From a virus: a stretch of 37,150 nucleotides of DNA. This document shows, one piece after another, positions 1,604 through 37,150 of this stretch. A model generated the notes under the pieces. It was not told the DNA's origin and did no database searches. It saw nothing but the letters and a program-made list of their open reading frames with translations. Location: the IMG/VR virus record IMGVR_UViG_3300026613_000128. One strand, written 5' to 3'. Every line of letters begins with the position of its first letter. Position 1 is the stretch's first letter. The translations under genes were made by a program, and so were the position numbers.

Positions 1604-1613
1604 GGGGGTTCTC

Positions 1614-2741: not shown

Positions 2742-2767
2742 AAATTTCCCGTCAGGTGGGAAAGCAG

Positions 2768-2808
2768 AAAGGCGCCTGATTGCCTGTTGACCGGGCGCCT
2801 TTTTTTTA
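2768..2808 (+). terminator. Rho-independent terminator after the capsid gene
   Basis: aaaggcgcc (2768-2776) pairs with ggcgccttt (2793-2801) and is followed by a T8 run. A second small hairpin, tttccc/gggaaa, lies just upstream at about 2745-2765. Confidence 0.85.
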
Positions 2809-2837
2809 CTTACTTAATAGACCAGAAGGTATTTTTT

Positions 2838-3233: not shown

Positions 3234-3236
3234 GCC

Positions 3237-5087: not shown

Positions 5088-5122
5088 TGAGCCCAGTTTT
5101 TTAACCTTTAAGGGGCTAAATC

Positions 5123-6634: not shown

Positions 6635-6650
6635 TAAGGGGTTTTTTGTA

Positions 6651-7097: not shown

Positions 7098-7561
7098 TGG
7101 ATCTACGTGAGCCAAAGGAAATCACTATTGAGGCTCAGGGTGGAATTCAAAAGACCTATATCATCTCGAAATTCCCGGCTGTTGCAGGTCGGGAAATCGT
7201 TTGTAAATACCCTCTCAGTGGTATGCCAAAGCTGGGTGAGTACAAGGTCAATGAAGAGACCATGCTGAAGCTAATGAGCTATGTTGCGGTTAAGCCAGGT
7301 GGCGGAAAGGAGCCTATTCGACTGCAAACCATGGAGCTTGTGGATAACCATGTTCCCGATTGGGAAGCGCTTAGCAAAATTGAAATGGAAATGATGGGGT
7401 ATAACTGCAGTTTTTTTCAGAACGGCAAGATCTCAAGTTTCTTGGACGGTATCAAAGCGACAGCCCAACAGTTGATTTCGTCAACATTGACGGATTCATT
7501 GGCGCAATTGTTGCAGACGGCAAAGCAACACTCAGAGAGCTCACAGAATACTACACCTTAG
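7097..7561 (+). CDS. Tail assembly chaperone (G-like, zero-frame product)
   Basis: 154-aa ORF directly upstream of the tape measure. It contains a T7 slippery run, and the -1 frame downstream is open. Confidence 0.75.
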   Translation: MDLREPKEITIEAQGGIQKTYIISKFPAVAGREIVCKYPLSGMPKLGEYKVNEETMLKLMSYVAVKPGGGKEPIRLQTMELVDNHVPDWEALSKIEMEMMGYNCSFFQNGKISSFLDGIKATAQQLISSTLTDSLAQLLQTAKQHSESSQNTTP

Positions 7562-7656
7562 AAGAGGCGTTTATTCTTTGGGAGTGTATTGCTGTGCCGC
7601 GATATAATGAGCATCTTGCCATAAAACAAGCACAGGGGAATAACCGTGGCCGGTAG
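7097..7656 (+). CDS. Tail assembly chaperone -1 frameshift product (GT-like)
   Basis: After a slip on T_TTT_TTT (7411-7417) the -1 frame is open for 79 further codons, with its stop TAG at 7654-7656. It reads SERQDLKFLGRY...ATLRELTEYYTLEEAFILWECIAVPRYNEHLAIKQAQGNNRGR and ends 10 nt inside the tape measure gene. Confidence 0.65.
7411..7417 (+). promoter_or_regulatory. Slippery heptamer T_TTT_TTT for programmed -1 frameshifting
   Basis: The zero frame reads AGT TTT TTT CAG (S F F Q). The -1 frame is closed by TAA at 7402-7404 and open from 7405 onward. Confidence 0.65.
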
Positions 7657-9163: not shown

Positions 9164-9696
9164 GCACAAGCCTTGATCGCCTGGCGCCTACCTCAGTTGT
9201 AGATGTGGTGGCTGTTTTTGATGCTGATTTTAACCAGGTGTTTCCTGATGCGGCACCTATGAGTGCTTCAATCAATCAGACGGCAACGTTTTTTAAACAC
9301 CCCCTGGAGGATAGTCGCCAAAGAACAGACCATATTATTTTTAACCCTGTAGAGGCTGTGCTCACGGTAGTGTTAACTGGCGCTGAATATCGTCAGGTTT
9401 ATCAGCAGATAAAGCAAATTTACAACACCCAAACAGCGCTTGTTTTTCGTACTAAGGTTGATACTTTCGAAAATATGTATCTTCAGGGAATGCCGCATGA
9501 TGAAACACCAGAAAATTATGATTCTGTGGTGGTTTCTCTCAGTCTTCAGGAAACCCAGTTTGGTACAACCGTGGTGACTTTTCAGCCTGCAAATACTGAG
9601 GATACTGATACGGTGGACAGGGGGCAGCAAGAGCCAGGAGAGCCCACTGAATCCCAGCAGCAACAGGGTTCAACCTTGTTTAGGATTTTCTCATGA
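9160..9696 (+). CDS. Distal tail/baseplate assembly protein (XkdP-position), family unknown
   Basis: 178-aa ORF coupled to the tape measure stop by ATGA. The function is positional. Confidence 0.55.
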   Translation: MSTSLDRLAPTSVVDVVAVFDADFNQVFPDAAPMSASINQTATFFKHPLEDSRQRTDHIIFNPVEAVLTVVLTGAEYRQVYQQIKQIYNTQTALVFRTKVDTFENMYLQGMPHDETPENYDSVVVSLSLQETQFGTTVVTFQPANTEDTDTVDRGQQEPGEPTESQQQQGSTLFRIFS

Positions 9697-10016
9697 GCTT
9701 GATTGTGCCTATTGCGTCCATTCCTAATCAATCGTTTTCCTTTCAGCCCGAAGAGGTTCGCTATGATATTCGGCTGGCTGATACTGGCAGCATGATGATT
9801 TTGGACCTTTCGATAAATGAGGTGGTGGTTTTATCGGGATCCAGGATAACGGGAGGGGCGCCGCTGATTCCTTACCAGTATCTTGAAAACGGGGGTGGCA
9901 ATTTCCTATTTTTAACAGAGCTGGGTGATATTCCTTACTGGGATCAATTTGGGATAACTCAAAGCCTGATGTATGTGACTGTCTCAGAACTGGAGGCTAT
10001 TCGTGCTGGATCCTAG
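9693..10016 (+). CDS. Baseplate-associated small protein
   Basis: 107-aa coupled ORF between the tape measure and hub genes. Confidence 0.55.
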   Translation: MSLIVPIASIPNQSFSFQPEEVRYDIRLADTGSMMILDLSINEVVVLSGSRITGGAPLIPYQYLENGGGNFLFLTELGDIPYWDQFGITQSLMYVTVSELEAIRAGS

Positions 10017-10842
10017 GGTTGTTCGGGTTGGTGTCACTATCAATGATCAGCTAAATGTCTATGAGGGGCTTGCTATAACCGCTCAGGGGTCCAAGTATGC
10101 GAGTGCCACTCAAAATGAAACCACAATTAAAATTGCCAATCTGAACAAGCAGGCACGTGATTTTTTGGCAACTGAGGGTACACCGTTCAATCGGGTCAGA
10201 AATAGAAGGCGGCAAAAAATTTTTGTCCAAGCTGGCAGGGAATCAACCGGTGTAGCTACCATTTTTATGGGTGATATCACGCTTGTGAATGTGGCACAGC
10301 CTCCTGACATTTGGACAGAGATACGTGCGGTAACTTCTCAGTTTCAGAAAGGCGATATTATATCGACAAGTGAGGGGCCTTTATCCACACTAAATGCCAT
10401 TTCCAAAAAGGCTGCAGATGCGTTGGGTGTAAGCCTCCAGTTCGAGGCTGATGATAAACAGATTGCCAATTACGGCTATACCGGATCAGTTACCAAGCAG
10501 GTTGATAAGCTGGCTGAGCTGGCCTCAGTGGATGCTTTTGTTGATGATGAGGTTTTGGTTGTCAAGAATATCAACGCGCCATTGTCGGGGCGCCGGCGTG
10601 AGCTGAGCGCAGCTAATGGCATGGTGGGAAAGCCTGAATTCACTGACTTTGGTGTTAAGGTGAAATTCCTGTTTGATGTTTATACCAAGGTGGGTGATGA
10701 GTTGGAAATTGTCAGTGAGGTTTATCCGGCTGCCAATGGTCGATATGTTATCTATAAACTGGATTTTGATATTGCCAACCGGGATACGCCATTTTGGTAC
10801 GTGGCCGAAACCAGAAGGCCTGGAGGGGTTTTAAGTGGCTAA
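10003..10842 (+). CDS. Baseplate hub protein (XkdQ / gpD-like)
   Basis: 279-aa ORF with a GTG start and SD tggagg 6 nt upstream, directly before the spike gene. Size and order match PBSX/Mu-type baseplate modules. Confidence 0.6.
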   Translation: MLDPRVVRVGVTINDQLNVYEGLAITAQGSKYASATQNETTIKIANLNKQARDFLATEGTPFNRVRNRRRQKIFVQAGRESTGVATIFMGDITLVNVAQPPDIWTEIRAVTSQFQKGDIISTSEGPLSTLNAISKKAADALGVSLQFEADDKQIANYGYTGSVTKQVDKLAELASVDAFVDDEVLVVKNINAPLSGRRRELSAANGMVGKPEFTDFGVKVKFLFDVYTKVGDELEIVSEVYPAANGRYVIYKLDFDIANRDTPFWYVAETRRPGGVLSG

Positions 10843-11485
10843 TAGTCAACCATCAAGAAATCCGGCCAACAGTTCGGGCGATTTTACTGGTGGCATGCGT
10901 GAGATTTTGCGCAAGTTTTTAGTTCGCGATGTGGATGACATGATTCCGGCTACGGTTGTGGCTTATGATCGGGCGTCTAACCGCGCTACTGTACAGCCAC
11001 AAATTGCTGTGCTGAAAACTGATGGAAGCTTTACCAGGCGTAACCAGGTAGCCAGCGTGCCTGTAGTTAATATTGGTGGGGGTAATGCCGTACTATCATT
11101 TAATCTCAACCCTGGCGATTTGGGATGGCTGAAGGCATCGGATAGAGATATTGCTGAATTTCTCAAAAACTACAGTGAATCATTGCCGGCAACCAAAAGA
11201 ATTCATGATTTCAATAATGGTATTTTTATCCCGGATATGATGACGGGTTATACCATTGATGAGGAGGATGAGGGGAATGCAGTTCTTCAAACGCTTGACG
11301 GTACTGTGAAGGTATCCCTCTTTCCTGATAAGTTAAAGCTGACGGCCCCAGTTGTTGAAGTTGCCGCTGCTGCACAGCTGGGTGGGCCTGCAGGTTTGCC
11401 GATTGCTAGGCTTGGTGACCAGGTTACAGTTGGCGGAAATGTTGGTGTTATAACGAGTGCCAGCGGTATTCATAGGGCGACATGA
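10835..11485 (+). CDS. Baseplate central spike protein (Gp138-N / gpV-like)
   Basis: IPATVVAYDRASNRATVQPQIAVLKTDGS...VPVVNIGGGNAVLSFNLNPGDLGWLKASDRDI matches the OB-fold N-domain pattern of gp138/gpV spikes. Confidence 0.75.
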   Translation: MANSQPSRNPANSSGDFTGGMREILRKFLVRDVDDMIPATVVAYDRASNRATVQPQIAVLKTDGSFTRRNQVASVPVVNIGGGNAVLSFNLNPGDLGWLKASDRDIAEFLKNYSESLPATKRIHDFNNGIFIPDMMTGYTIDEEDEGNAVLQTLDGTVKVSLFPDKLKLTAPVVEVAAAAQLGGPAGLPIARLGDQVTVGGNVGVITSASGIHRAT

Positions 11486-11841
11486 TGGCTATACGAATTT
11501 TTGCAGAGAATGAAAAGCGCGATATTTTCATGGGTAGCAATAAGCGGATATCTATAATTGATGGGAAATCTGCTGTTGCTCAGGCTGCGAAAAGTGCTGT
11601 TGAGATCCAGTTGGGGGAAGCGATTTATAACACTGTGAGAGGTGTGCCTTCGGATCGCGCTGTGTGGAGTGGCACCCCCGATTTGCAGCAATTTGAGTTC
11701 TATGCACGGCGTCAAATATTAAGTGTTCCCGATGTCCTGGAAGTTACATTTTTTAATGCTGAAATGGTGGGTGATGAGCTTCAATATCAGGCCACTATTA
11801 AAACGACATTTGGAGAGGGTCAAATAAATGGCAGCGTATGA
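11482..11841 (+). CDS. Baseplate wedge protein (gp25/W-like)
   Basis: 119-aa coupled ORF immediately upstream of baseplate J. It contains a ..IQLGEAIYNTVRGVP.. motif. Confidence 0.6.
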   Translation: MMAIRIFAENEKRDIFMGSNKRISIIDGKSAVAQAAKSAVEIQLGEAIYNTVRGVPSDRAVWSGTPDLQQFEFYARRQILSVPDVLEVTFFNAEMVGDELQYQATIKTTFGEGQINGSV

Positions 11842-13036
11842 TTTTATTAATTTAAGCGGTGTTATTGTTGCTGATACCTCAGCTACAAAGGGAGAGGTTC
11901 AGCAAGAATACCGGGATATTTTCGGTGATGATTTAGACCTTGATGATGAGACCCCCGAGGGGGTTTTGATTAACAGTGAAACATTATCCCGCAATGGTAT
12001 TGCCAACAACAACGCCAACATGGCCAATCAGATCAATCCTAATTTGGCTGGTGGTATTTTTCTGGATGCCATATGGGCGCTGACTTATGCCTTAACCGGT
12101 GGGCGCCGGGAGGCCACCCCCTCAACATTCTCTCAACCGATTAACTTGACTGGCGTGCCTGGTACGGTGATCCCTGCGGGTAGTGTTGCCTTGTCTGTGG
12201 CTGGTGATGAATTTGAGTCTTTGTCTGAAGTGGTGTTAGATCTGGCTGGTGAGGCCTCTGTGGCTTTCCAGGCAGTAAAGAATGGCCCTATTGCTGTTGG
12301 TATTGGTGAACTTAATAGCTTGGCTCCTGGTGCGCCTCTGGGTTGGGAGACGGTAAATAACACTGTTGCGGCTACGCTGGGTAGTGATGAGGAGAGTGAT
12401 TCTCAGAGCCGCCTTAGGCGCGTTGATACATTGGCGCTTCAAGGGATAGCAATATCTGAGGCCATTACATCTGCTCTCAATAATATTAATGGCGTAAAAA
12501 GCTTGTCATACAGGGAGAATTTCACTGATACAGATCAAGTTATTGATGGTGTTTTTTTGCTTAAGCATTCAGTTTATGCCTGCGTGGATGGGGGTGGTAA
12601 TGGTGAGGTTGCTTTAGCGCTCCTGGAAAACAAAACAGCGGGAGCAAATTGGAATGGCGCTCTTGAGATTCCTGTTCTTGATGAAACAAGCGGCCAAGTT
12701 TATCCGGTGAAATTTGATAGACCTGTGCTTGTTCAAGTATGGATTCGAGTAACAATTGCCCCCACTACAGTATCAAATCCCTCTGATGTTATTGATGATG
12801 CTGTTTTAAAGTATGTTAATGGAGAGCTTGAGGGGCAGCGTGGTTTTGTGGTGGGAGCCAATGCCAGCCCATTTGAAATTGCTAGCGCTGTTAATATTGA
12901 GGCTCCTACTATTTTTGTCCGACAGGTTGAGCTATCTACTGATGGTCTTGTATACAACGTGGCTGAGATTCCTGTGGAAATTTTTGAAGTGGCGCGCACC
13001 AGTGCTGCTCAAATAACAACGGTTATAGTGCCATGA
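11828..13036 (+). CDS. Baseplate J-like protein
   Basis: 402-aa ORF whose size and position (after the gp25-like gene, before the DUF2612-like gene and fibre) fit. N-terminus ..TKGEVQQEYRDIFGDDLDLDDETPEGVLINSE. Confidence 0.8.
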   Translation: MAAYDFINLSGVIVADTSATKGEVQQEYRDIFGDDLDLDDETPEGVLINSETLSRNGIANNNANMANQINPNLAGGIFLDAIWALTYALTGGRREATPSTFSQPINLTGVPGTVIPAGSVALSVAGDEFESLSEVVLDLAGEASVAFQAVKNGPIAVGIGELNSLAPGAPLGWETVNNTVAATLGSDEESDSQSRLRRVDTLALQGIAISEAITSALNNINGVKSLSYRENFTDTDQVIDGVFLLKHSVYACVDGGGNGEVALALLENKTAGANWNGALEIPVLDETSGQVYPVKFDRPVLVQVWIRVTIAPTTVSNPSDVIDDAVLKYVNGELEGQRGFVVGANASPFEIASAVNIEAPTIFVRQVELSTDGLVYNVAEIPVEIFEVARTSAAQITTVIVP

Positions 13037-13680
13037 AGGTTCAAGCGTTTGATTTTTCAATTGATGTTATTCGCTCGTTGCTTTGGCGTCATAATGAGGC
13101 TGAAAATTTACAGGCTATTTTGCAGAATAAGCAAGCTGCCATGGATGAGCTAAACCAGGATTTTTGGGAGTCTTGGTTTGATGATGTTTTTAACCTGGAT
13201 ACAGCCAATAGTTTTGGTCTTTCAGTCTGGTCTATCATCCTTGATATTTCGCTCACTGTAGGATCAGGAACCCCTGAGATTCCAAATTCAAATTTTGGTT
13301 TTGGATCATTCAGGAAAAATTTTAATAACGGAAATTTCACCAATGTTGGTGATGTTGTCATCAGTGATGATGATGCGCGCATACTATTAAAGCTGCGTTA
13401 TTACCAGCTGGTTACGCGTGGCACCATTCCAGAATGCAACAAAATTGTGGCTGATGTATTCAGTGATTTTGGTCTGGTTTTTGCGCTTGATGGTTATGAT
13501 ATGACCATGGCTTATATATTTGAGCAGGATCCACCATTGAATATTAAGCGCTTGCTGGAAGATTATGATTTACTCCCGCGCCCATCGGGTGTTGGTGTGC
13601 GGGTGGTGTATGCTCCGAATAGTGCATTTGGCTTTGGTGGTTTTCGTAAAAACTTTAACAATGGTAATTTTAGGGCGTAA
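13033..13680 (+). CDS. Baseplate/tail-fibre adaptor protein (DUF2612-like) with an internal duplicated motif
   Basis: 215-aa ORF carrying NSNFGFGSFRKNFNNGNF (nt about 13290-13343) and NSAFGFGGFRKNFNNGNF (nt about 13618-13671). Confidence 0.6.
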   Translation: MKVQAFDFSIDVIRSLLWRHNEAENLQAILQNKQAAMDELNQDFWESWFDDVFNLDTANSFGLSVWSIILDISLTVGSGTPEIPNSNFGFGSFRKNFNNGNFTNVGDVVISDDDARILLKLRYYQLVTRGTIPECNKIVADVFSDFGLVFALDGYDMTMAYIFEQDPPLNIKRLLEDYDLLPRPSGVGVRVVYAPNSAFGFGGFRKNFNNGNFRA

Positions 13681-13682
13681 TC

Positions 13683-14696
13683 ATGACTAAATATTTTGGG
13701 ATTCCCTTTGCTAATGCTGGTGATAAGGTTCCAGTTCCAAACGGTTTACAGCCTGGTGGTGAGGTGAGTTATACCGAAGGATGGGGGCCTGATTATGAGG
13801 CTGATCAGGAGTCAGATCCTTCAGCAAAGGACATAAGCCGTACTGCAGAAAATCAATTGAAATTTGATATCACAGAGGCCCTGAAGGAGCTCCAGGAGCT
13901 CGGGTTTAAAGTGTATGCCTCTGATGTTAATTATCCAGTTACAGCTTATACCGTAGGGTCTGATGGTCGTGTTTATCAGGCAGCTATAGTCAACGGTCCT
14001 GCATCATCCATTGTTGATCCTGTTGGTGATGGTACGGGAACCTGGTTTCCCGCTCTTGGTCATTCCATTCAAACGGTATTGACTGCCTCAAATCCTGCTT
14101 GGAATCCTAATCCATTGACAAAAGTGATTGAGTTTATGGCAATTGGTGGTGGAGGTGGTGCAGGTGGTGTAAATGGCCAGGGGGTTGGCACTGCTGGGGT
14201 GTCATCTGGTGGTGGTGGTGGTTCAACTGTTGTAAAGCGTTTCAATAATGCCGGTGGTCCATTTGCTATTATCGTTGGTGCGGGTGGTGCCGGTGGGGCT
14301 CCTGGCAATACATTTGGCAATGGTGGCGGTATCACCTCAATCATTGGTCCTGGAGTGAATCTCCAGGCTGGTGGTGGTGGTGGTGGTTTTGGTCAGACAG
14401 CATCAGCCGGTGACCAGCGCGTGCCTATTGGAGCTGGCGGCTCAGGGCTTGGGGGGGATTATACCTTGGTCGGTGGGTCATCAAGTGCTGGCTATATTGT
14501 GGGTGGTGTCAGGGGTTCTGAGAGCTTCTCAGGCGGTTCTTATGGTGGCCCTGGTAAACCTTCAAATGCTGGCCCTGCATTTGATGGCGATGGGTTTGGT
14601 GAAGGCGGTGGTGGCGTATCGGTTTTTGGTACTGCTGATCAGCTTGGAGGTGGTGATGGGTTTCAGGGTGTGGTGATTATTAAGGAGTATTTATAA
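13683..14696 (+). CDS. Tail fibre protein with a glycine-rich C-terminal domain
   Basis: The N-terminus MTKYFGIPFANAGDKVPVPNGLQPGGEVSYTEGWGPDYE is a typical fibre attachment motif. The C-terminal 200 aa are Gly-rich (IGGGGGAGGVNGQG..GGGGGGFGQ..). Confidence 0.75.
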   Translation: MTKYFGIPFANAGDKVPVPNGLQPGGEVSYTEGWGPDYEADQESDPSAKDISRTAENQLKFDITEALKELQELGFKVYASDVNYPVTAYTVGSDGRVYQAAIVNGPASSIVDPVGDGTGTWFPALGHSIQTVLTASNPAWNPNPLTKVIEFMAIGGGGGAGGVNGQGVGTAGVSSGGGGGSTVVKRFNNAGGPFAIIVGAGGAGGAPGNTFGNGGGITSIIGPGVNLQAGGGGGGFGQTASAGDQRVPIGAGGSGLGGDYTLVGGSSSAGYIVGGVRGSESFSGGSYGGPGKPSNAGPAFDGDGFGEGGGGVSVFGTADQLGGGDGFQGVVIIKEYL

Positions 14697-18134: not shown

Positions 18135-18386
18135 TTATCCTTGGTAATGTATTATCTTTTGAGAGATTCGGTTTAAAATCTCATTTTGCTTGCTGGAGAG
18201 CTCATAATCCTCTGGCTTATCGGCTAAGCTATTAATAAATTCGGCTTCCCATTCTGATAGTGCGTGCTCGCAATCAAGGGCGTCTTTAATGAATTTTATC
18301 TGCACTCTATTCATAGTCTGGTGTGTGCTCCAGTAGTAGTTACTCGCATAATCCATAGGCGCTAGAGCATGCCTCAGGATCCTCAC
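18135..18386 (-). CDS. Small hypothetical protein (true start probably 18356 or 18314)
   Basis: The longest ORF overlaps the PAPS-reductase-like gene end by 47 nt. Internal Met codons give MDYAS.. or MNRVQIKFIKDALDCEHALSEWEAEFINSL... Confidence 0.5.
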   Translation of the reverse strand: MRILRHALAPMDYASNYYWSTHQTMNRVQIKFIKDALDCEHALSEWEAEFINSLADKPEDYELSSKQNEILNRISQKIIHYQG

Positions 18387-19275
18387 TAGCTGCTATTAAA
18401 TCCATGGTGCGACCACCACGGGTTGTTTGTGCCCATTCAACGCGGCGATCTATGCCGTGAGTTGTAAAGTGGATATCATCGCCAGGTGATACCAAGGGAT
18501 CATCTGTGGCGGTAAAAAATGTAGTTGAGCCTCTCCGGGATGCGTTACTGACAAGCCTTTCCCATTCTCTTACCCTTGCTACCTCTTCAGGAAAACGCTT
18601 AGCAATATTATTTAATTCGGCCTTATTGCAGTTTATGCAAGGCATGCAGCCGACGCGCCCCATTCCTTTTTTATAAAGTGGGTTGGGCTCTATTCCCATG
18701 TAGTGATGAGCCTCAAAAGCACTATCAGCACTCCATTTAACCAATGGTCTATAGTTATATAGGCCGCCTCCCACATCTTCAAACTCAGGGGTATATCGGC
18801 GCGCCAAGGATTCATCTCTACGGACTCCTTGCCAGCTATAAATAGCTTCACCTTGCTCAAGAATTGGGAAAAATACTTGTTCAAATATAGGATTGCGCTT
18901 TAACTCCTGAGTGCAAAAACGAGCCTTTGAAGAGGGAAAGCGACCTTTCCAAAGGCATAAATCCAAAAATGGAATTCCAGTTGGATAAAGTATTTTTAGC
19001 GCTCGCGCTATTGCTTGATCTGTCCAGCCAGGCAGTTTTCCCTGTATAAGCTTTTGCCGCTTTCTTTTAATCTCTTGAGAAAAATCAGCCTTCACTATTG
19101 CTATAGGATGATTGAGTGCGTCTTCTAAGTAGCAGATATAGTTATAAGTTTCTGGATGTTCATGCCCTGTATCAGCAAAAACTAGCTTAATATTTGGTGT
19201 TTCGAGAGCTATCGCAAGCAATGCTGTTGCTGTCGAATCTTTGCCGCCGCTAATGGATATGATGTTGTTGATCAT
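18340..19275 (-). CDS. PAPS reductase-family PP-loop ATP pyrophosphatase (DndC/CysH-like)
   Basis: MINNIISISGGKDSTATALL contains the SGGKDS PP-loop. A C-terminal Cys pair sits in GRVGCMPCINCNK. The ATG at 19275 overlaps the upstream stop (TGATG), with SD aggaga. The longer start at 19296 is less likely. Confidence 0.85.
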   Translation of the reverse strand: MINNIISISGGKDSTATALLAIALETPNIKLVFADTGHEHPETYNYICYLEDALNHPIAIVKADFSQEIKRKRQKLIQGKLPGWTDQAIARALKILYPTGIPFLDLCLWKGRFPSSKARFCTQELKRNPIFEQVFFPILEQGEAIYSWQGVRRDESLARRYTPEFEDVGGGLYNYRPLVKWSADSAFEAHHYMGIEPNPLYKKGMGRVGCMPCINCNKAELNNIAKRFPEEVARVREWERLVSNASRRGSTTFFTATDDPLVSPGDDIHFTTHGIDRRVEWAQTTRGGRTMDLIAASEDPEACSSAYGLCE

Positions 19276-19472
19276 CAAAAGCTCTCCTGAATCCATTCGG
19301 AGACAGTGGGATCCACTTCAATCAGTGCGCTAATGTTAGATTCAAGCATTCCACCATTGCGCACATCAAAAGTGACGGCCTGGTTTTCAGGATCTGTTGG
19401 ATGAGGTGCGGCAAATTCTACAAGCCGACGCTTATCGCTATCAAAAAATGTGGTGCCTTTGGATGTTTTCAT
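19275..19472 (-). CDS. Hypothetical protein
   Basis: 65-aa ORF coupled at both ends. Confidence 0.55.
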   Translation of the reverse strand: MKTSKGTTFFDSDKRRLVEFAAPHPTDPENQAVTFDVRNGGMLESNISALIEVDPTVSEWIQESF

Positions 19473-21732: not shown

Positions 21733-22572
21733 ATGGCAGCGAAAGTGGCAGAAAGAAAGACAGTTACAAAAAGTGTTGGGGAGGCCGGGGTGGAGAAAGT
21801 GGTTGAGTCTACGCCGGTGCGCAATCCGTTCTTTGATCTGGTTGAAATGGCCATTGAAAAGGATGCGGATATTACAAAAATTGAAAGGCTTGTGGAGCTC
21901 TTTAGAAGCTCAGAGCAGGCGGCAGCCCGGAAAAATTATTATCGGGCAATGGCAGCTTTTCAGGCTGAGTTGCCGGCGATAAAAAAAACCAAGGAGGCCC
22001 GATTTTCTTATAAAGAAGGGGGCGGCGAAGTCGTTTACAAATATGCCCCGCTTGGTCAAATTGCTGAACAAATTAGGCCGTATTTAGATAGGCATGGTTT
22101 TTCATATCGCTTTGAACAATCTGTAACGGAACAGGGATGGTTGAAAGTTACTTGTATTGTGACGCACCTGGATGGCCATTTAGAGCAGTGTGAAATGATT
22201 GGGATGCTGGATGCAACAGGGCGTAAAAATATTCTACAACAGGGAGCATCCACGACTACTTATTTAATGCGTTATACGCTTAGTGGAGTGTTTGGCATTG
22301 CTACCATTGATGATGATATCGATGGTTTTTTATTGAATGATGAAAAGCCGTTTGATAATCCTGCTCCTGCTGATCCATATGCAGAGTATGAACAAGTGGA
22401 GGGTGATACTAAGCCACCATATCCTGATGAAAAATTCTGCAAAAATTTTCCCAAATGGGCAGCAGCAATTAATGTTGGTGACGCGACAGCAGATAGCATT
22501 ATTGCTATGATTTCATCCCGTTTTACATTAACACCTGACCAGGTTGATTTGATCAAAAACGCTAATACTTAA
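21733..22572 (+). CDS. erf: ERF-family single-strand annealing protein
   Basis: ..MAAFQAELPAIKKTKEARFSYKEGGGEVVYKYAPLGQIAEQIRPYLDRHGFSYRF.. matches the ERF N-terminal core. It is followed by an exonuclease gene. Confidence 0.8.
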   Translation: MAAKVAERKTVTKSVGEAGVEKVVESTPVRNPFFDLVEMAIEKDADITKIERLVELFRSSEQAAARKNYYRAMAAFQAELPAIKKTKEARFSYKEGGGEVVYKYAPLGQIAEQIRPYLDRHGFSYRFEQSVTEQGWLKVTCIVTHLDGHLEQCEMIGMLDATGRKNILQQGASTTTYLMRYTLSGVFGIATIDDDIDGFLLNDEKPFDNPAPADPYAEYEQVEGDTKPPYPDEKFCKNFPKWAAAINVGDATADSIIAMISSRFTLTPDQVDLIKNANT

Positions 22573-22581
22573 GGTAGGCAT

Positions 22582-24258
22582 ATGAATATTTTGAATATAG
22601 AACCGGGTAGTGATAAATGGAAAAACATCCGTTTTGATTATCTGTGTGCTTCAGAAGCTCCGGTGATGACGGGGGATCACCCCCATATGTCGCGGGATGA
22701 TTTGTTGGCTTATAAAACCACAAAAATTGAAAAGGATGTTAGTCGCTTCACGCAATACATTTTTGACAAAGGACATAGACTTGAAGAAATGGCGCGCCCT
22801 ATTGCAGAGGATTATTTGGGTGTAGAGCTTTATCCCTCTGTTGGTGTTCGTGAGTATCATACTAACGATTACACTCTAAATTTATTGTCTAGTTTTGATG
22901 GGTTGTCACTCTGTCAGAAGCATATTTTTGAGCATAAGCAGTGGAATGAAAAAAAAGCTATTTCTATAATGGATAATTATGGATTGGAGCCGCTGCATTA
23001 TTGGCAGTTGGAGCATCAGGCCTTGGTGGCTGGTTTGAAGTCAGTTCTATTCGTTATGTCTGACGGGACTAGGGAGAATTGGCTACCCTTTAAATATGAT
23101 TCAAATCCTAATTTACGCAAGGAGCTCATTAAGGGTTGGGTTATGTTTATGAAGGATTTGGAGGGTTATCAGCCAAAAACCTATGTGGCAAAACCTGTAG
23201 CAGCTCCTGTAAAAGAATTGCCAGCAATCACTTATCAGCTTAATGGCCTGGCGCTCACATCCAACCTTGATCAGTATAGGACTGCTGCTGAGAAACTTGT
23301 GGATGATTCCAGAAAGCCAATGTCTACTGATCAGGATTTTGCCGACCGTGAATTGCTGGTCAAAAAATTCAGGGAAGCAGAGAAAACAATCTCATTAATC
23401 CAAGATCAAGTTATAGGTGAGGTTTCAGATATTGATGAGTTTCGCAAGGATCTTGGGCATATTGGCGATCTTCTCAGGCAGGCGCGCTTGAATGGTGAAA
23501 AGCTTATAAAGATGAGAAAGGAGGAAATAAAACAGGAAGTTATAAGGCGTGTTCAAACTGAATTAAATCAGTATATCGATAAGGCAAATCATGCTTTAAG
23601 AGATGATGATGTTGGTGCTGAATTTAATCTAAAAGTGCTATCAATATCTGCTGATTTTACTGGCGCTATTAAGAACAAGAGAACAATGAAGTCACTTAAC
23701 GAGTCGGCTAATGATGAGCTGGCCCGCGCAAAAATTCAGGTCGATAGTGTTTATGATCGCATGGCCTGGCATGTTTCGCTGTATAAGGATCTTGCAGAAA
23801 AAAATAAAAGTGATTTTCCTGCGGGTATTGGCTTCCTCTTTCCCGATATGCTAACAATCATTGATTATGAGGAGGACAGCTTTACAGCTGTTATTAAAAC
23901 TCGAATAAATGAATTTAAAGAGGCGCAAAAAGAAAAGGAAAGGGTGCAGCAGGAGCAGCTAGAGGCTACTGATAAGGTTGAGGAAGGAAGCTTTAACAAG
24001 AATCTTGATGTTATTTTGGATGGATGTGAGGCCCCTGATGCGGCTGTTATAGAGCCATCTTTTTCTTCTGTCTCAAAAGATTCTGAACTTTACCAGGGTA
24101 TTGTTACTGATAGCATGGCTGAAAATACAAAAAAGGTAACGGCATTTTCAGCAGAAGGTCTTTTATCTGCAATTGATGGTTGGGCGCGAGGAAATCGCAT
24201 ATCGCCAGCTTCAAAAGCCCAGCTTATCGAAATATTAAATTTCCATAACGTTCTGTAA
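22582..24258 (+). CDS. YqaJ/lambda-Exo-type recombination exonuclease with a roughly 350-aa C-terminal extension
   Basis: N-terminal motifs GSDKWKNIRFDYLCASEAPVMTG, ..SSFDGL.., FEHKQ and HYWQLEHQALVAGL.. fit the YqaJ family. Residues from about 200 to 558 are charged/coiled with no family I recognise. Confidence 0.8.
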   Translation: MNILNIEPGSDKWKNIRFDYLCASEAPVMTGDHPHMSRDDLLAYKTTKIEKDVSRFTQYIFDKGHRLEEMARPIAEDYLGVELYPSVGVREYHTNDYTLNLLSSFDGLSLCQKHIFEHKQWNEKKAISIMDNYGLEPLHYWQLEHQALVAGLKSVLFVMSDGTRENWLPFKYDSNPNLRKELIKGWVMFMKDLEGYQPKTYVAKPVAAPVKELPAITYQLNGLALTSNLDQYRTAAEKLVDDSRKPMSTDQDFADRELLVKKFREAEKTISLIQDQVIGEVSDIDEFRKDLGHIGDLLRQARLNGEKLIKMRKEEIKQEVIRRVQTELNQYIDKANHALRDDDVGAEFNLKVLSISADFTGAIKNKRTMKSLNESANDELARAKIQVDSVYDRMAWHVSLYKDLAEKNKSDFPAGIGFLFPDMLTIIDYEEDSFTAVIKTRINEFKEAQKEKERVQQEQLEATDKVEEGSFNKNLDVILDGCEAPDAAVIEPSFSSVSKDSELYQGIVTDSMAENTKKVTAFSAEGLLSAIDGWARGNRISPASKAQLIEILNFHNVL

Positions 24259-28483: not shown

Positions 28484-28711
28484 ATGCTGATTTTGAGTAG
28501 GCGTATTGGTGAAACCCTTATGATTGGTGATGATGTTACTGTCACTGTGTTGGCTGTAAAGGGTAATCAGGTCCGGGTGGGGGTGAAAGCTCCTAAAGAA
28601 GTGGATGTGCATCGGGAGGAGGTTTATCAGCGTATTCAGCGTGGCGAGGAGAAACCTGCTAAAACCACAAAAACTATCAAGCGTGGCCAGGGTGGTTTGA
28701 CGCGGTATTAA
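28484..28711 (+). CDS. csrA: Carbon storage regulator CsrA/RsmA homologue with a basic C-terminal tail
   Basis: [52 protein letters not shown] is near-identical in pattern to enterobacterial CsrA ([52 protein letters not shown]). SD aaggag. The tail is ..[19 protein letters not shown]. Confidence 0.95.
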
Positions 28712-28754: not shown

Positions 28755-29681
28755 ATGGCTAAAGTTAAAGAAGAAAGGGCGGCATCAGTGGCTGGTGATG
28801 GTTGGTATATTGAGGGGCTTAATGTTGCGGTGGGGAGCATTATGCAGTGGATGGTTCAGCAGTTTCGTGATTTGCCGGAGCCTTGGGATGCTATGGGTGA
28901 GTATAGTCAGGAAAATTATTTGGAGCGCTGCGAAAAGCAGGCCAAGGATATTGTTCGCCAGGTGGGCGCCCTGGTGTCCTCTCACGGTCATCAAGTGGTA
29001 CCTGCGACAATTGGCCCTGTTACATTTAATGATGGTGTAAAGGCTACTCTGAAGATTGCTAACGGCGTCCAGGGGGCTTTTGAGGTGGCACAGTGCCAAG
29101 GGGAAGTGTGTCATATCTTGCTGGCCGATATTGAGGAGCTCCTTGAGTCATCGCAAGGGTTGCCGGCAGCCACGCCTGACCAGGGAGCTTTACATCTTGA
29201 GGATGGGTTACGTGATCCTCTTTATTGTGAGGCTGTGGCTTATGTTCAGCGCAAGGAGGGGGATACTATTTCCATCTCTAATCTTCAGCGGTATCTGAGG
29301 ATTGGTTATAACCGGGTAGCTCTATTGATTGAAGCAATGGAGAGTGCTGGTGTCGTTGCTCCTCTTGATGGGAGTGGAATTCGCCGCGTTATTATTCATG
29401 TCGGACCTGAGCCAGAAGAAACAGTTCTCAATGAGGGGGATGGTGATGACAAGGGTTTGAAGCCTGGTAAGGGTGGTGATGAGCATGATGATAAGGATCC
29501 TCTCTATCAGGATGCTGTGAAATTCGTTGTCGAATCTGGCAAAACTTCGATATCGGCTGTCAGATCTGAGATGAAAGTGGGATATAACCGTGCTGCAAAT
29601 ATGCTTGAGGTAATGGAAAAGGAAGGGGTTTTGAGTCCTCCCGATAATGGCGGCAAGCGCTCTATTGTGGTGCGGCAGTAG
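28755..29681 (+). CDS. Protein with two tandem FtsK-gamma winged-helix domains and no translocase motor
   Basis: aa 154-214: DPLYCEAVAYVQRKEGDTISISNLQRYLRIGYNRVALLIEAMESAGVVAPLDGSGIRRVI. aa 248-306: DPLYQDAVKFVVESGKTSISAVRSEMKVGYNRAANMLEVMEKEGVLSPPDNGGKRSIV. Both match the E. coli FtsK gamma pattern [47 protein letters not shown]..G.REVL. There is no Walker A/B anywhere, and the N-terminal 150 aa belong to no family I recognise. Confidence 0.85.
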   Translation: MAKVKEERAASVAGDGWYIEGLNVAVGSIMQWMVQQFRDLPEPWDAMGEYSQENYLERCEKQAKDIVRQVGALVSSHGHQVVPATIGPVTFNDGVKATLKIANGVQGAFEVAQCQGEVCHILLADIEELLESSQGLPAATPDQGALHLEDGLRDPLYCEAVAYVQRKEGDTISISNLQRYLRIGYNRVALLIEAMESAGVVAPLDGSGIRRVIIHVGPEPEETVLNEGDGDDKGLKPGKGGDEHDDKDPLYQDAVKFVVESGKTSISAVRSEMKVGYNRAANMLEVMEKEGVLSPPDNGGKRSIVVRQ

Positions 29682-30028
29682 TGGGTTTTATCAGCGCAAT
29701 ACAGCCCAAAAAACCCCAAAGTGATAAGTGGGAAGTAATACCGGTGGATACAAGCCGGTTTACTCATGGTTATGTTGGCGTGACATATGGTAGCTCTGAC
29801 GGCTTCTTTGTGATTTCTGCTGTCGAGGTGATGGACGGAGAGCCCTTTTATCATATCTCACTGTCAAAGGAATCCAGGCAACGCTGTACGCGCAATGAAG
29901 TTAGGGCTGTTATTAGGGATTTTGGAATGTGTGGTGCTGAGGAGGATACATCTGGTGCAGCTTTGGCGCGGCACTTCTTCCTGGCTGTTGCTGATCGTGA
30001 TGAGGTTGATGGTTATGAGCAAGATTGA
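29681..30028 (+). CDS. Hypothetical protein
   Basis: 115-aa ORF whose GTG start overlaps the upstream TAG. Confidence 0.5.
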   Translation: MGFISAIQPKKPQSDKWEVIPVDTSRFTHGYVGVTYGSSDGFFVISAVEVMDGEPFYHISLSKESRQRCTRNEVRAVIRDFGMCGAEEDTSGAALARHFFLAVADRDEVDGYEQD

Positions 30029-30245
30029 AATAGAAATTCCTGAGTTGGGGGTTGTTGTTGAAGCTGATTTGCAGCCAATAATAGATGATCATTTTCAGAT
30101 ATCTATGGGGGTTGTTTTTGCTGATGAGCTTGGTTGGGAGTCCAGTTTGCCGCCACTCCGTCAGCCTTGGTTATCAGCTGTCGCCCCAACGATTCCGCGA
30201 GCTATTGATAATTTCAGGGCCATGTTTTTGGGTGGTGACTCATGA
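30015..30245 (+). CDS. Hypothetical protein
   Basis: ATG at 30015 with SD gaggt 8 nt upstream (MSKIEIEIPELGVVVEADLQ..). The longer listed ORF from 29895 would overlap the previous gene by 134 nt. Confidence 0.5.
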   Translation: MSKIEIEIPELGVVVEADLQPIIDDHFQISMGVVFADELGWESSLPPLRQPWLSAVAPTIPRAIDNFRAMFLGGDS

Positions 30246-31266: not shown

Positions 31267-31929
31267 ATGAATTCTGATCATGTTTTTATCGGTGTGCATG
31301 GTATTAATGTCACCTTTCCGCAATTAACGATTAATAAATTCCGTGGCGCTGTGGAATTCTACGGCGCTGAATACGATGCATTCACTTACGGTCATATGAA
31401 CATTGGCCAGATCCATTGGGTCAATCGCTTGCTGGCTCAGAGCTTGGTTGATCGCATTGAGCATTGGTTACTTCTGGATAAGAAGGTCCATGTTGTCTGT
31501 CACTCCAATGGCGCTGCCATCCTTCACTTGGCACATAGGATTATCGGGCATGAGCTGGAATCTGTTATCTGCGTTAACCCGGCGCTTAAGCAGGATCTCA
31601 TCCCGTACGCCAGTGCAAAGCAAATCCTGGTTGCCCACAATGAGGAGGATCGCGTTGTTGAATGGGCGCGCCTCTTCACGCTTTTCACGTTCGGTGCTGT
31701 CGATCTGAGGCCGTGGGGAGAGATGGGGCGTTATGGGTATCAGGGTGCCAAATTTGCCAAGCTGACTAACTTTGATACTGCTGAGGGGCCTTACCCGGCG
31801 TTGGGTCATTCCGGGTTGTTCTTTGGTGCTCCTGCGTTTTATTGGATTCCCTTGCTTATCAGTCGGGCCCTCAATCTTCCTGCGCCCCCTTTGTTTCTGG
31901 GTGCTGAAGGGGTGCCTGATGGGGATTAA
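31267..31929 (+). CDS. Alpha/beta-fold serine hydrolase (esterase/lipase-like)
   Basis: Nucleophile-elbow-like VVCHSNGAA (Ser codon at 31504-31506), a later acidic HNEEDRVVEW and ..PALGHSGLF.. suggest a Ser-Asp-His triad. The product is 220 aa. Confidence 0.6.
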   Translation: MNSDHVFIGVHGINVTFPQLTINKFRGAVEFYGAEYDAFTYGHMNIGQIHWVNRLLAQSLVDRIEHWLLLDKKVHVVCHSNGAAILHLAHRIIGHELESVICVNPALKQDLIPYASAKQILVAHNEEDRVVEWARLFTLFTFGAVDLRPWGEMGRYGYQGAKFAKLTNFDTAEGPYPALGHSGLFFGAPAFYWIPLLISRALNLPAPPLFLGAEGVPDGD

Positions 31930-32035: not shown

Positions 32036-32656
32036 ATGAGAATTGTTGTGGATGGTGATCTGCTGGAGCTCACAGAAGAGCAGGTTGAGATGTTCGAGGG
32101 GCTTACTACGTTGCGGCGCAATGTGGCTTTGAAGAAGCTCACAGGGCTCAGTGATGTGGAGGCCTATCGCCAGGGAGGTGGTAAAGCCAAAAGCTTGACT
32201 TCACAGACATCATCTGCAGCTGACATCCTGACAAATCCTGACGTTCGGGCTTTCATTGATTCTTTTAATGGGTATCTGGTTTCAAAGTCTATTATGGGGC
32301 GTCAGGAGATGCTGCAGCGCTTAACTGCAATGGCCCGTACTGATATGACTGATCTGGTTGATATCAAAAATAGGGTGGTTGTAGAGGATCCTGAGATGGG
32401 TGTTATTGAGCAGTCATTTTGGGCGCTTAAGGATGTGGATGAAATGGATGCCGATTCGCGGGCTGCTATTAGTGAGCTGACGGCAACGCGTGGAGAGCTT
32501 AAAATAAAGATTCATGATCAAAAGGCCGCTATGAAACAGATTGCTGAAATTGAGGGATTTAATGCCCCTATTGAGCATGATGTGATAGTGGCCCCGAAGG
32601 GGTTCAATGACTTCTACAGCAATGAGGATGCCAACGACTCAACAGAAGAGACCTAG
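32036..32656 (+). CDS. terS: Terminase small subunit (Terminase_2-like)
   Basis: ..EQVEMFEGLTTLRRNVALKKLTGLSDVEAYRQGGGKAKSLTSQTSSAADILTNPDVRAFI.. matches the HTH region of Terminase_2 small subunits. It lies immediately upstream of terL and overlaps it. Confidence 0.75.
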   Translation: MRIVVDGDLLELTEEQVEMFEGLTTLRRNVALKKLTGLSDVEAYRQGGGKAKSLTSQTSSAADILTNPDVRAFIDSFNGYLVSKSIMGRQEMLQRLTAMARTDMTDLVDIKNRVVVEDPEMGVIEQSFWALKDVDEMDADSRAAISELTATRGELKIKIHDQKAAMKQIAEIEGFNAPIEHDVIVAPKGFNDFYSNEDANDSTEET

Positions 32657-34070
32657 CCTAAATCCGGCTTTAAAACCATTCTGGCAAACCAAGGCAGACC
32701 TTAAAATATTAAAGGGGGGTAGAGCCTCCTCAAAAACGTGGGATGCTGCAGGCTTCGCTATCTACCTGGCGCGTACATATAGGGTTAAATTCCTATGTAT
32801 GCGCCAGTTTCAGAACAAAATCCAAGAATCAGTATATGCCGTTTTGAAGGTTCAGATTGAGCGCTTTGGATTATCCTCAGAATTTGAGATTTTAAAATCA
32901 ACTATTCGTCACCGTAAGACGAAATCAGAATTTCATTTTTATGGCATTCACAGAAATATTGCCGAAATTAAAGGTTTTGAGGGTGCTGATATTGGGTGGA
33001 TTGAGGAGGGTGAGGGACTCACTCAAGAGCAGTGGAAACATATTGAGCCAACCCTTAGAAAGGAGGGCGCTGAATGCTGGTTGCTCTATAATCCTCGCTT
33101 GCAAAATGACTTTGTTGAAACCCTCCAGGATAAAGAATCATTAGAGTTTGATCCAAGAACCAAGCTTTATAAAACAGCTGATAAGTCTGTTTTGGTTCGC
33201 CACATTAATTACGATGAAAATCCCTTTTTGTCAGCTACTATGCTGCGCAAAATCAATCGTCTTAAGCGTCTTGATTATGATGAATATGAGCATATCTATC
33301 TGGGTATAGCCATAACTGATGATGATCATGTAATCATTAAAATGTCGTGGCTTGAGGCGGCTGTGGATGCTCATATTAAGTTGGGTATTGAGCCTAAAGG
33401 TAAGAAAAGAATTGGCTTTGATATCGCCGATGATGGCCCTGATTTATGCTCTCAGGTATACCGTCATGGAATTGTTGCGCTATGGGGTGAAAACTGGAAG
33501 GGTAAAGAGGACGAAATTTTAAAAAGCTGTACCAGGGTTTTCAATAAAGCAATTGAGCTTGGTGCATCGATAAATTATGACTCTATTGGTGTGGGGGCAT
33601 CTGCAGGGGGTAAATTCAGTGACCTCAATGATGCCCGAGAAGAGGCGGGTTTAGCCGGTAGAGTGCGCTATTCCAAGTTTGTTGCCGGGGGCGGCGTGGT
33701 GGATCCTGACGGGTTTTATATTGAAACAGACGATGAGCAGGTGGCTAATAAGGATTTCTTCTGCAATCTCAAGACGCAAGCTTGGTGGGGTGTGGGGGAT
33801 CTGTTTAGAAATACATACAATGCAGTAACGCATGGCGAAAAATTTGAGGAAGATGAGCTTATCAGTATTAGCTCTGATATGCCTGGCTTAAAAAACCTCC
33901 TGGTTCAGCTGTCAACTGTACGGCGTGACTTTAGCAAGACTGGTCAAGTGAAAGCTGAGGGTAAAGATGATTTGGCTAAAAGGGGTGTTAATTCGCCAAA
34001 TGATGCGGATGCCTTTATTATGGCTTATGCGCCTGAAGAGGCTGAGTCAATTGGATTTTTGGATTTTTAA
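32607..34070 (+). CDS. terL: Terminase large subunit (PBSX/Terminase_3-6 type)
   Basis: LKILKGGRASSKTW is the Walker-A-like P-loop and ..DIGWIEEGE.. is Walker B. The C-terminal nuclease part includes IGFDIADDG.. and ..SPNDADAFIMAY. SD gaagggg. Confidence 0.9.
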   Translation: MTSTAMRMPTTQQKRPSLNPALKPFWQTKADLKILKGGRASSKTWDAAGFAIYLARTYRVKFLCMRQFQNKIQESVYAVLKVQIERFGLSSEFEILKSTIRHRKTKSEFHFYGIHRNIAEIKGFEGADIGWIEEGEGLTQEQWKHIEPTLRKEGAECWLLYNPRLQNDFVETLQDKESLEFDPRTKLYKTADKSVLVRHINYDENPFLSATMLRKINRLKRLDYDEYEHIYLGIAITDDDHVIIKMSWLEAAVDAHIKLGIEPKGKKRIGFDIADDGPDLCSQVYRHGIVALWGENWKGKEDEILKSCTRVFNKAIELGASINYDSIGVGASAGGKFSDLNDAREEAGLAGRVRYSKFVAGGGVVDPDGFYIETDDEQVANKDFFCNLKTQAWWGVGDLFRNTYNAVTHGEKFEEDELISISSDMPGLKNLLVQLSTVRRDFSKTGQVKAEGKDDLAKRGVNSPNDADAFIMAYAPEEAESIGFLDF

Positions 34071-36722: not shown

Positions 36723-37150
36723 GAAGCCTTTAAGTGAAGAAATTAGTAAGGCCATTGCTGTGGTTTATGGGATGGTTGAGCGGCGTTCTGAGATTGATGC
36801 CGCTGACCTTAATGCTATTCATGATGCCGTTGCTGAAAAATTCGCTATGGATGCCACTGAGTCCTATGCGGAAGACCCTTTTAAGTCAGATGCACAGCGA
36901 AAGTATCTTTATGCCAATGAGCCGGCTGTGGCTGAGAAATTTGCTAAGGATGAAGAGGCGCCAGCATCTCATCGCGAAACAGATATTAATGGCTGGGTTG
37001 AGATTAAAGACAATCCCATATCCAAGGTTGGTGTTTTTCCTTACCTTGGGAAAACTATTGATCGGGATGGCAAGCTGGGCCTGGATCCAAACCGATTTTA
37101 TGATGTCTATCGCCCGGCTGAGGAGCTTGCGGACCCTGAGTGTATTGAGT
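36715..37150 (+). CDS. Prohead protease/scaffold-like protein (DUF2213-like), N-terminal part; it continues at nt 100 of the window via the 99-nt overlap
   Basis: The ORF is open to the window edge. TTG at 36715 is preceded by SD gaggggg (36702-08). Alternative in-frame ATGs lie at 36700 and 36772. The phase matches the ORF ending at 1100. Confidence 0.75.
37052..37150. repeat. Terminal overlap copy (identical to nt 1-99)
   Basis: Read directly. Confidence 0.95.

Follow-up and report, generated by a model that had tools for sequence, protein, structure and literature searches.

We examined a viral DNA sequence of 37,150 nucleotides (nt) from IMG/VR (record IMGVR_UViG_3300026613_000128), referred to in its entirety as the window, and focus here on a gene whose product carries two copies of the gamma domain of the DNA translocase FtsK and no translocase motor. 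The first 99 nt of the window (1-99) and the last 99 nt (37052-37150) are an identical repeat, and thus the phage genome is complete, circular or circularly permuted, with a length of ~37,051 bp. The gene, hereafter the gamma-gamma gene, and its predicted features are as follows (aa, amino acids; pLDDT, predicted local distance difference test; pI, isoelectric point).

28755-29681, plus strand: gene encoding a protein of 308 aa from an ATG start, comprising an N-domain, a first gamma copy, a disordered acidic linker, and a second gamma copy.
28827-29204, plus strand: N-domain (aa ~25-150), an acidic module of the family PHROG 6576.
29181-29198, plus strand: conserved Q-x-x-L-x-L peptide, QGALHL (aa 143-148), with which the N-domain ends, in a coil that immediately precedes the first gamma copy.
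29211-29396, plus strand: FtsK gamma copy 1 (aa 153-214; pLDDT ~90-95).
29403-29477, plus strand: disordered, acidic linker rich in Gly and Asp (aa 217-241; pLDDT < 50; pI 4.2, net charge -6).
29490-29672, plus strand: FtsK gamma copy 2 (aa 246-306).

The Pfam profile FtsK_gamma (PF09397) was found twice in the protein (whole-protein E = 2e-40; 136.8 bits against a gathering cut-off of 30.6). A gamma hidden Markov model (HMM) built in-house placed the copies at aa 152-216 and 245-308 (nt ~29208-29402 and 29487-29678), and these bounds bracket the two winged helices that an initial annotation of the window, made from the sequence alone, had recognized at 29214-29396 and 29496-29672. Queries consisting of gamma tails from eight cellular FtsK proteins also recovered both regions (tblastn; E = 1e-12 to 6e-25). 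When PDB sequences were searched with phmmer, the gamma domain of Pseudomonas aeruginosa FtsK (2VE8/2VE9/2J5O; E = 2.3e-16) and a XerD-gamma fusion (5DCF; E = 3e-12) were retrieved, as was the gamma domain of Escherichia coli (2J5P). An AlphaFold2 model of the whole protein, built from an alignment of 83 sequences, had a mean pLDDT of 79.7, with both gamma copies above 90. The modelled gamma fold superimposed on P. aeruginosa FtsK gamma (2VE8/2VE9) with a template modeling score of 0.90-0.92 and a root-mean-square deviation of 0.8-1.8 A (Foldseek).

Neither the FtsK_SpoIIIE domain (PF01580) nor a Walker A motif is present in the protein, as the initial annotation had stated, and a tblastn search with eight FtsK motor domains against all frames of the whole genome yielded no match (best E = 0.82). 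Because the motor domains find nothing in any frame, a frameshifted or split FtsK/SpoIIIE was rejected. The protein scores 80 bits against the NCBIfam FtsK equivalog model, which has a cut-off of 1566. Judged by its sequence, the protein is not an FtsK/SpoIIIE translocase, since it carries the C-terminal gamma but fails the motor test. It also has no hit to the Terminase_2 domain or to the RdgC domain (PF04381).

The two copies share only 40% identity, and their nearest cellular FtsK gammas differ (66% and 62% identity for copies 1 and 2, respectively); a recent internal duplication was rejected on these grounds. As compared at the sequence level, the copies derive from either an old duplication or two separate captures. 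They also differ in charge, with a pI of 8.2 for copy 1 and 6.4 for copy 2.

The N-domain had been described in the initial annotation as belonging to an unknown family. This stands insofar as profile searches of PDB sequences, NCBIfam, and Pfam recovered no relative; however, the domain is not an orphan but rather a member of the widespread family PHROG 6576 (E = 5.6e-46 when the full protein is compared and 4.9e-12 with only the N-domain). With the N-domain alone as the query, a word-indexed protein search returned no hits, and relatives emerged only in an exhaustive phmmer search of 1.84 billion cluster representatives with aa 1-153 as the query. That search identified 453 proteins at E <= 1e-3, most of them stand-alone proteins of 140-180 aa that match end to end. 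All of the sampled relatives (62 of 62) match phrog_6576, to which no function has been assigned; FtsK_gamma is present in 14 of the 62, and no other Pfam family was detected among them. Across 151 family representatives, 127 have no gamma copy, 23 have one, and only the protein from the window has two. Single gammas are found even in homologs that are about as long as the window protein (P0002 and P0177). That the family is large, mostly stand-alone, and only optionally equipped with gamma suggests that its conserved function resides in the N-domain.

The N-domain was modelled with a pLDDT of 84.5 and a predicted template modeling score of 0.63, and comprises long helices (aa 17-38 and 49-76), a beta-hairpin (aa 85-100), and short helices. 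No significant match to this fold was found in the PDB (best E = 3.0), and a comparison to BFVD returned three family members, all uncharacterized, and nothing else. The domain is acidic (pI 4.6, net charge -12), as is typical of the family (median pI 4.8, net charge -9), and an acidic tail is frequent at the end of the stand-alone members. Of the residues in the Q-x-x-L-x-L peptide, Q143 is nearly invariant among 62 sequences, and the pattern Q..[LIMV].[LIMFV] occurs in 85 of 145 family members, often as QPxLPL or QRxLxL and frequently with an acidic tail after it. The hexapeptide that binds the beta sliding clamp has the form QLxLxL (PMC4564189), with which QGALHL agrees only in part, as position 2 is not Leu. 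The peptide is a possible docking site for a partner.

The closest known counterparts of the window protein are the uncharacterized gp12 of Pseudomonas phage phi297 (YP_005098039; L001 4911-5882) and gp72 of Pseudomonas phage YMC11/07/P54, hereafter P54 (YP_009273754; L002 4947-5879), in which a PHROG 6576 N-domain is followed by FtsK_gamma. Like the window protein, to which they are 32-36% identical over aa 28-307, both are motor-less and are encoded in an operon with a CsrA-like gene. Unlike the window protein, they carry one gamma and then a stretch of ~100 aa in which winged-helix signals are faint at best; their gammas are canonical, and they belong to temperate phages with their own integrase. 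Both proteins bear the name 'DNA translocase FtsK' in RefSeq. Because their match to the FtsK model involves only gamma and falls far under the cut-off (62-80 bits against 1566), this name is a misleading over-annotation of phi297-type proteins.

To evaluate the functional residues of the two copies, positions 1288, 1289, 1292-1297, 1300, 1303, and 1306 (numbering of E. coli FtsK) were compared. In the 5DCF structure, XerD is contacted by Q1288, R1289, R1292, I1293, G1294, and N1296, of which R1289 is the most critical, and this same surface doubles as the contact to the DNA of FtsK-orienting polar sequences (KOPS; PMC5052618). Substitutions at R1300, E1303, and E1306 of the recognition helix generate KOPS-blind FtsK, and the R1300A variant is KOPS-defective (PMC2680272). 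Among 117 cellular gammas, the pattern Q R R I G Y N R / R / E / E is essentially invariant, with R1300 present in 111 of the 117. The gammas of the PHROG 6576 family (n = 27) are mostly canonical (R1289 in 22 and R1300 in 16), with three that are degenerate, and the gammas of phi297 and P54 are identical to the pattern of the P. aeruginosa host at 11 of 11 positions.

The window copies share with the cellular FtsK gamma (E. coli 1266-1329; 2VE8, 2VE9, 2J5P, 5DCF) the fold, up to 62-66% identity, the G-Y-N-R core, E1303, and E1306, but they are duplicated and lack the alpha-beta motor and membrane anchor. Copy 1 has the pattern Q R R I G Y N R / L / E / E, in which all six XerD contacts are kept and R1300 is replaced by Leu. 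Copy 2 has the pattern R S K V G Y N R / N / E / E, in which Q1288R, R1289S, R1292K, I1293V, and R1300N are changed and G1294, Y1295, N1296, R1297, E1303, and E1306 are kept. Two of these changes weaken the functional proposals of the initial annotation: E1303 and E1306 are kept but R1300 is lost in both copies (L, N), and the full set of XerD-contact residues is kept in copy 1 (6/6) but not in copy 2, where R1289 is Ser. By its residue pattern the window protein is atypical, as neither copy has R1300 and only copy 1 has the complete XerD-contact set. Since R1300 is replaced in both copies, binding to DNA is probably non-specific or directed to something other than KOPS.

These data bear on the suggestion that the protein acts as a decoy for KOPS or a competitor of host FtsK. 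In this scenario, the protein would coat host KOPS or cap the loading sites of FtsK, thereby disturbing segregation or division. Both copies have true gamma folds with E1303, E1306, N1296, and R1297 kept; one KOPS is bound by three gammas in the crystal structure, such that multimerized gammas would bind better; and the phi297 and P54 gammas match their host pattern throughout. However, the residue whose substitution renders FtsK KOPS-defective is replaced in both window copies, and because KOPS-blind ftsK strains grow at wild-type rates (PMC2680272), the blocking of KOPS would give a phage little leverage. Moreover, enrichment of the motif is not seen in the phage genome. The initial annotation had pointed to KOPS counts and strand skew as informative, and in the phage genome these are at chance level: canonical KOPS GGGNAGGG occurs three times on the plus strand and not at all on the minus strand, where 3.1 and 0.6 are expected from composition. 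Polar, over-represented 7- or 8-mers were not detected in the phage genome beyond codon-periodic GGT/GAT runs and Chi-like words. We consider a role as KOPS decoy to be very unlikely. In the whole genome of the temperate phage phi297 (L022), the plus strand carries eight copies of GGGNAGGG and the minus strand a single one (9.7 and 7.2 expected from composition), which represents a marginal strand polarity in the form of depletion on one strand.

A second explanation directed at the host is that the protein is a free activator of XerD. The tandem gammas would contact host XerD at chromosomal dif and trigger XerCD exchange without translocation by FtsK, with the outcome that unlinking of the host chromosome is perturbed or that recombination induced by the phage is coupled to Xer. 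Isolated gamma suffices to activate XerCD-dif recombination in vitro as well as on plasmids in vivo. A tandem of three gammas (gamma3), made by engineering, outperforms a single gamma, and the products are topologically complex (PMC3130261). Covalent gamma trimers also bind DNA better than monomers (PMC3384302). These engineered multimers resemble the window protein in having several gammas, flexible Gly-rich linkers, and no motor. They differ in being artificial, in comprising identical wild-type gammas from E. coli or Lactococcus lactis, and in having no N-domain, whereas the window copies have diverged and are altered at R1300.

Copy 1 keeps all six of the 5DCF contacts, including the critical R1289. 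However, as the same residues contact DNA and are invariant in cellular gammas (117/117), keeping them does not specifically indicate that XerD is bound, and copy 2 has R1289S as well as Q1288R. A natural phage fusion of gamma with a tyrosine recombinase was identified in P0008 (433 aa; L021 6001-7302), a phage integrase encoded beside tail genes, in which the C-terminal half of the PHROG 6576 domain is followed by FtsK_gamma and then by the Phage_integrase catalytic domain. P0008 mirrors in nature the XerD-gamma and XerC-gamma fusions that were engineered to be self-activating. Mobile elements are also known to encode FtsK-independent activators of XerD, namely XafT of the Vibrio cholerae satellite phage TLC-phi (PMC6744903, PMC9226527). 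XafT is a functional precedent for XerD activation but is not itself a gamma-domain protein. The element that encodes it has a dif-like attP through which it belongs to the elements inserted at dif; a site of this kind was not found in the window phage.

The search for dif used references from E. coli, V. cholerae, P. aeruginosa, and Haemophilus influenzae and thus covers dif of the gammaproteobacterial type. The best candidates in the phage genome had 7-8 mismatches in the 22 arm positions, as many as in shuffled sequence, and XerD arms with at most one mismatch were absent. The host is probably a gammaproteobacterium, since the terminase is most similar to those of phages of this group (Vibrio phage 1.210.O at 64% identity, then Edwardsiella and Klebsiella phages). 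A dif-like site was likewise not found in phi297, which encodes its own integrase. A phage dif site of this type, and with it Xer-dependent integration or resolution, was therefore rejected for both phages, and the proposal in the initial annotation that the protein serves dimer resolution of the phage genome or Xer-dependent integration is unsupported.

Activity at host dif is a separate matter, which we retain as a possibility because isolated and tandem gammas activate XerCD-dif and because the P0008 fusion exists. Isolated gamma, however, requires high concentrations in vitro and yields only ~1% recombination at chromosomal dif in vivo (PMC3130261); 127 of the 151 family members are gamma-less; and a benefit to a lytic-type phage is not evident. 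Activation of host XerD by the window protein is, on balance, unlikely. Somewhat more doubtful still is a specific version of this idea, in which the protein is a natural 'gamma-2' hyper-activator, with copy 1 activating XerCD at host dif and copy 2 and the N-domain acting as a tether. If this were true, the products would be topologically complex, as for the engineered multimers, and the phage would lock unlinking of the host chromosome and division or would couple its recombination module to Xer.

The genes that surround the gamma-gamma gene in the window are as follows.

21.7 kb onward, plus-strand block: Erf-like gene, RecE-like exonuclease gene, small genes, CsrA, and the gamma-gamma gene; a RuvC-like resolvase gene lies on the minus strand.
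21733-22572, plus strand: Erf-like single-strand annealing protein (phrog_155, 1.2e-32).
22582-24258, plus strand: RecE-like exonuclease (phrog_7655, 2.9e-128).
28484-28711, plus strand: phage CsrA-like gene (Pfam CsrA, 1.4e-25; phrog_9500, 1.4e-30).
32036-32656, plus strand: terS, small terminase subunit (Pfam Terminase_2, 2.6e-12; phrog_51, 4.9e-19), given for context only.
32.0-37.1 kb and 0.1-14.7 kb: terS, terL, portal, head, and contractile-tail genes.
14.7-21.6 kb, minus-strand block: NinB/Orf, a PAPS-reductase-like gene, a replication initiator, and a small Xis/MerR-like DNA-binding protein.

To place the gamma-gamma gene in a broader context, we compared loci that encode family members from phi297 and P54, from 15 IMG/VR sequences retrieved with an alignment of nine family sequences, and from bacterial genomes (three loci), of which 19 loci were distinct. 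Open reading frames (ORFs) were obtained with a caller weighted by GC content at third codon positions, their proteins were clustered, and recurrent clusters were annotated with PHROGs. In about 14 of the 19 distinct loci, an annealing protein and an exonuclease are encoded within ~3 kb of the family gene. Three settings were distinguished, which represent three non-homologous recombination systems. In the first (phi297, P54), the family gene lies between genes for RecT and a PD-(D/E)XK exonuclease and a gene for an SbcC-like ATPase. In the second (L008, L009, L012, L014, L017, L018), it lies just 3' of genes for an Erf/RecT-like annealing protein and a RecE-like or other exonuclease. In the third (L003 (=L019), L004-L007, L020), it lies within or just upstream of a set comprising phrog_2480, Sak4-like, SSB, and Cas4-domain-exonuclease genes. 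The Erf and RecE-like clusters of the window recur directly upstream of the family gene in four loci of the second setting (L009, L012, L014, L018), and the window further encodes NinB/Orf and a RuvC-like resolvase. In phi297, which encodes a CI-like repressor and an AlpA-family regulator besides its integrase, the family gene is in a leftward early operon that is the counterpart of the lambda PL operon.

The gamma-gamma gene is directly downstream of the CsrA-like gene, with a gap of 44 nt, and precedes the terminase genes, in agreement with the initial annotation. A CsrA-like gene abuts the family gene in L009 (6722-6925) and L012 (7660-7851) as well, and it shares the early operon with the family gene in phi297 (L001 1434-1805) and P54 (L002 260-631). 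The copy in L012 is 73% identical to the CsrA of the window. A functional or regulatory pairing of the CsrA-like gene with the PHROG 6576 gene is possible.

Collectively, these observations lead us to favor, albeit tentatively, the interpretation that the window protein is an adaptor of a recombination module that is tethered to duplex DNA by its gamma domains; we infer the tethering, the docking of a partner, and the role in recombination, whereas the domain architecture, the lack of a motor, the family size, the optional gamma, the proximity to recombination genes, and the substituted residues are observed. According to this interpretation, the protein would be a modular component of an early DNA-recombination module rather than a translocase. 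The acidic N-domain would be the core functional unit, and would most likely dock a partner that is common to many hosts. Because the neighboring annealing protein varies (RecT, Erf, or Sak4), such a partner is expected to belong to the host or to be generic, rather than being one particular annealing protein; it could be the beta sliding clamp, bound through the QxxLxL peptide, or else a nuclease or recombination protein of the host. Since the N-domain is acidic, DNA binding must come from gamma, and the two C-terminal winged helices, presumably captured from cellular FtsK, would hold the N-domain on duplex DNA. The presence of two gammas on a flexible linker would raise avidity, as in the engineered multimers, and their binding would probably be non-specific or have a specificity other than canonical KOPS. 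The loss of R1300 in both copies and the lack of KOPS enrichment or of a polar motif in the genome support this interpretation.

Several points weigh against an adaptor function. The argument from gene neighborhood is indirect, and in five of the 19 loci (L010/L011, L013, L015, L016) no recombination neighbor is recognizable. In the window itself, the Erf-like and RecE-like pair (21733..24258) is on the same strand but 4.5 kb upstream of the gamma-gamma gene and not adjacent to it. Most gammas in the family, those of phi297 and P54 among them, keep every KOPS and XerD contact, a pattern which suggests that a specific FtsK-gamma function has been selected and not a generic tether. Likewise, the match to the clamp motif is partial, and an acidic domain that is fused to a DNA binder could instead autoinhibit. 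We know of no PHROG 6576 member that has been studied.

The same genomic setting is compatible with a role for the N-domain as an inhibitor. In the red operon of phage lambda, gam adjoins the genes for the annealing protein and exonuclease. By comparison, the acidic N-domain, often with an acidic tail, could mimic DNA and block RecBCD or another host nuclease, while the gammas would position the protein on phage DNA. Like gam, the family gene sits by an annealing protein and an exonuclease, and the occurrence of the N-domain with any type of annealing protein argues for a target in the host. Nonetheless, the N-domain has no fold likeness to lambda Gam or to any solved inhibitor, and a DNA mimic fused to a DNA-binding domain would be unusual. 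Enrichment of Chi on one strand (7 to 0) further suggests that RecBCD is tolerated rather than blocked. A Gam-like inhibitor is, in our view, quite improbable. The E. coli-type Chi sequence GCTGGTGG occurs seven times on the plus strand and not on the minus strand, where about 0.8 are expected, with all copies in structural genes (1505-14367), and GNTGGTGG occurs 20 times on the plus strand and not on the minus strand of the window. GGT-GGT codon runs may contribute part of this strand signal. This distribution is suggestive of a phage that makes use of Chi in a host whose RecBCD is of the enterobacterial or Vibrio type.

The position of the gamma-gamma gene relative to the terminase raises the further possibility that the protein assists packaging. 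The gene is 2.35 kb upstream of terS and on the same strand as terS and terL, the latter encoding a PBSX-type headful terminase; the portal gene comes after them. Bacillus phages Sam46 and Sam112 encode a small terminase with an N-terminal FtsK_gamma (PMC8190038). By analogy, the gammas might recognize a pac-type site or orient the terminase. Like the window protein, the Sam46/Sam112 TerS represents a motor-less use by a phage of a host-like gamma with an unproven function. It differs, however, in that gamma is N-terminal and fused to Terminase_2, whereas terS of the window is separate and gamma-less. Five small ORFs intervene before terS, and a terminase gene neighbors the family gene in none of the 19 related loci. 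In phi297, the family gene is ~13 kb from terS and on the opposite strand, and no repeated motif was found in the genome of the window phage. This is the least likely of the explanations that we considered.

Among the ORFs downstream of the gamma-gamma gene, a GTG-initiated ORF of 115 aa (29681-30028, plus strand) overlaps its stop codon, and is itself overlapped in another frame by an ATG-initiated ORF of 116 aa (29895-30245, plus strand); neither has a family match. An ORF of 220 aa between the gamma-gamma gene and terS (31267-31929, plus strand) has no match in Pfam, PHROGs, or NCBIfam, and holds a 'CHSNG' stretch that is reminiscent of the nucleophile elbow of alpha/beta-hydrolases. Scans for promoters and terminators around the gamma-gamma gene returned background levels only. 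No integrase, repressor, partition gene, or tRNA was found in the phage genome. The PAPS-reductase-like gene (18340-19296, minus strand; phrog_424, E = 3e-72) is situated in the early minus-strand block with unannotated genes around it, and may be part of a DNA-modification or auxiliary pathway. A megablast search with a 5.4-kb region against 50,697 phage records returned no match, and therefore there is no close isolate. The only record of the protein comes from a JGI metagenome.

Gamma domains detached from the motor are not confined to this family. We identified 207 phage records with a gamma match, including 146 from Vibrio phages and 30 from Pseudomonas phages (by organism name), and in most of the 207 the gamma is within genes annotated as RdgC or 'exonuclease recombination-associated'. 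Gamma thus recurs in phages as an appendage of recombination proteins, in keeping with the adaptor interpretation. Examples in which gamma is C-terminal to RdgC include MZ285879 (PA8; 33712-33885), KM389247 (JBD90), and OZ195752 (Vibrio phage D53; 38457-38633), and among isolated phages the RdgC-gamma form seems to be the most frequent architecture in which gamma occurs without a motor. These fusions resemble the window protein in their C-terminal FtsK_gamma, their association with recombination, and their lack of a motor, but they have an N-terminal RdgC (PF04381) instead of the PHROG 6576 domain and a single gamma.

Stand-alone FtsK_gamma genes of phages have been noted previously, with their role stated as unknown (PMC8190038), which is consistent with the view in the initial annotation that no phage protein of this architecture has been characterized. 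In the ShosTA and IMEX 2026 preprint leads, FtsK-gamma occurs only as a cited title or a reagent. The PHROGs family and its single-gamma members in isolates such as phi297 and P54 are already known. What is new is the tandem gamma (1 of 151 family representatives), the divergent substitutions of its two copies, and the association of the N-domain family with recombination modules. The embedding of this family in such modules and its homologs in the isolated phages phi297 and P54 extend beyond what the initial annotation had described.

For the biology of the family, these results portray gamma as an optional appendage of a large family of acidic phage domains that travels with three types of recombination module. 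This suggests that the recombination and recombineering systems of phages include an accessory factor that has so far been missed. The tandem gamma of the window protein is a natural counterpart of the engineered multimers with improved DNA binding and XerCD activation, and the differing substitutions in its two copies may separate contact with XerD from the reading of DNA. If the protein were a hyper-activator of XerD, the gammas on PHROG 6576, RdgC, and integrase would constitute a new phage route into the FtsK-XerCD-KOPS system. More broadly, the occurrence of gamma on the PHROG 6576 family, on RdgC, and on one integrase suggests a general link between phage recombination and the KOPS/XerD surface of the host.

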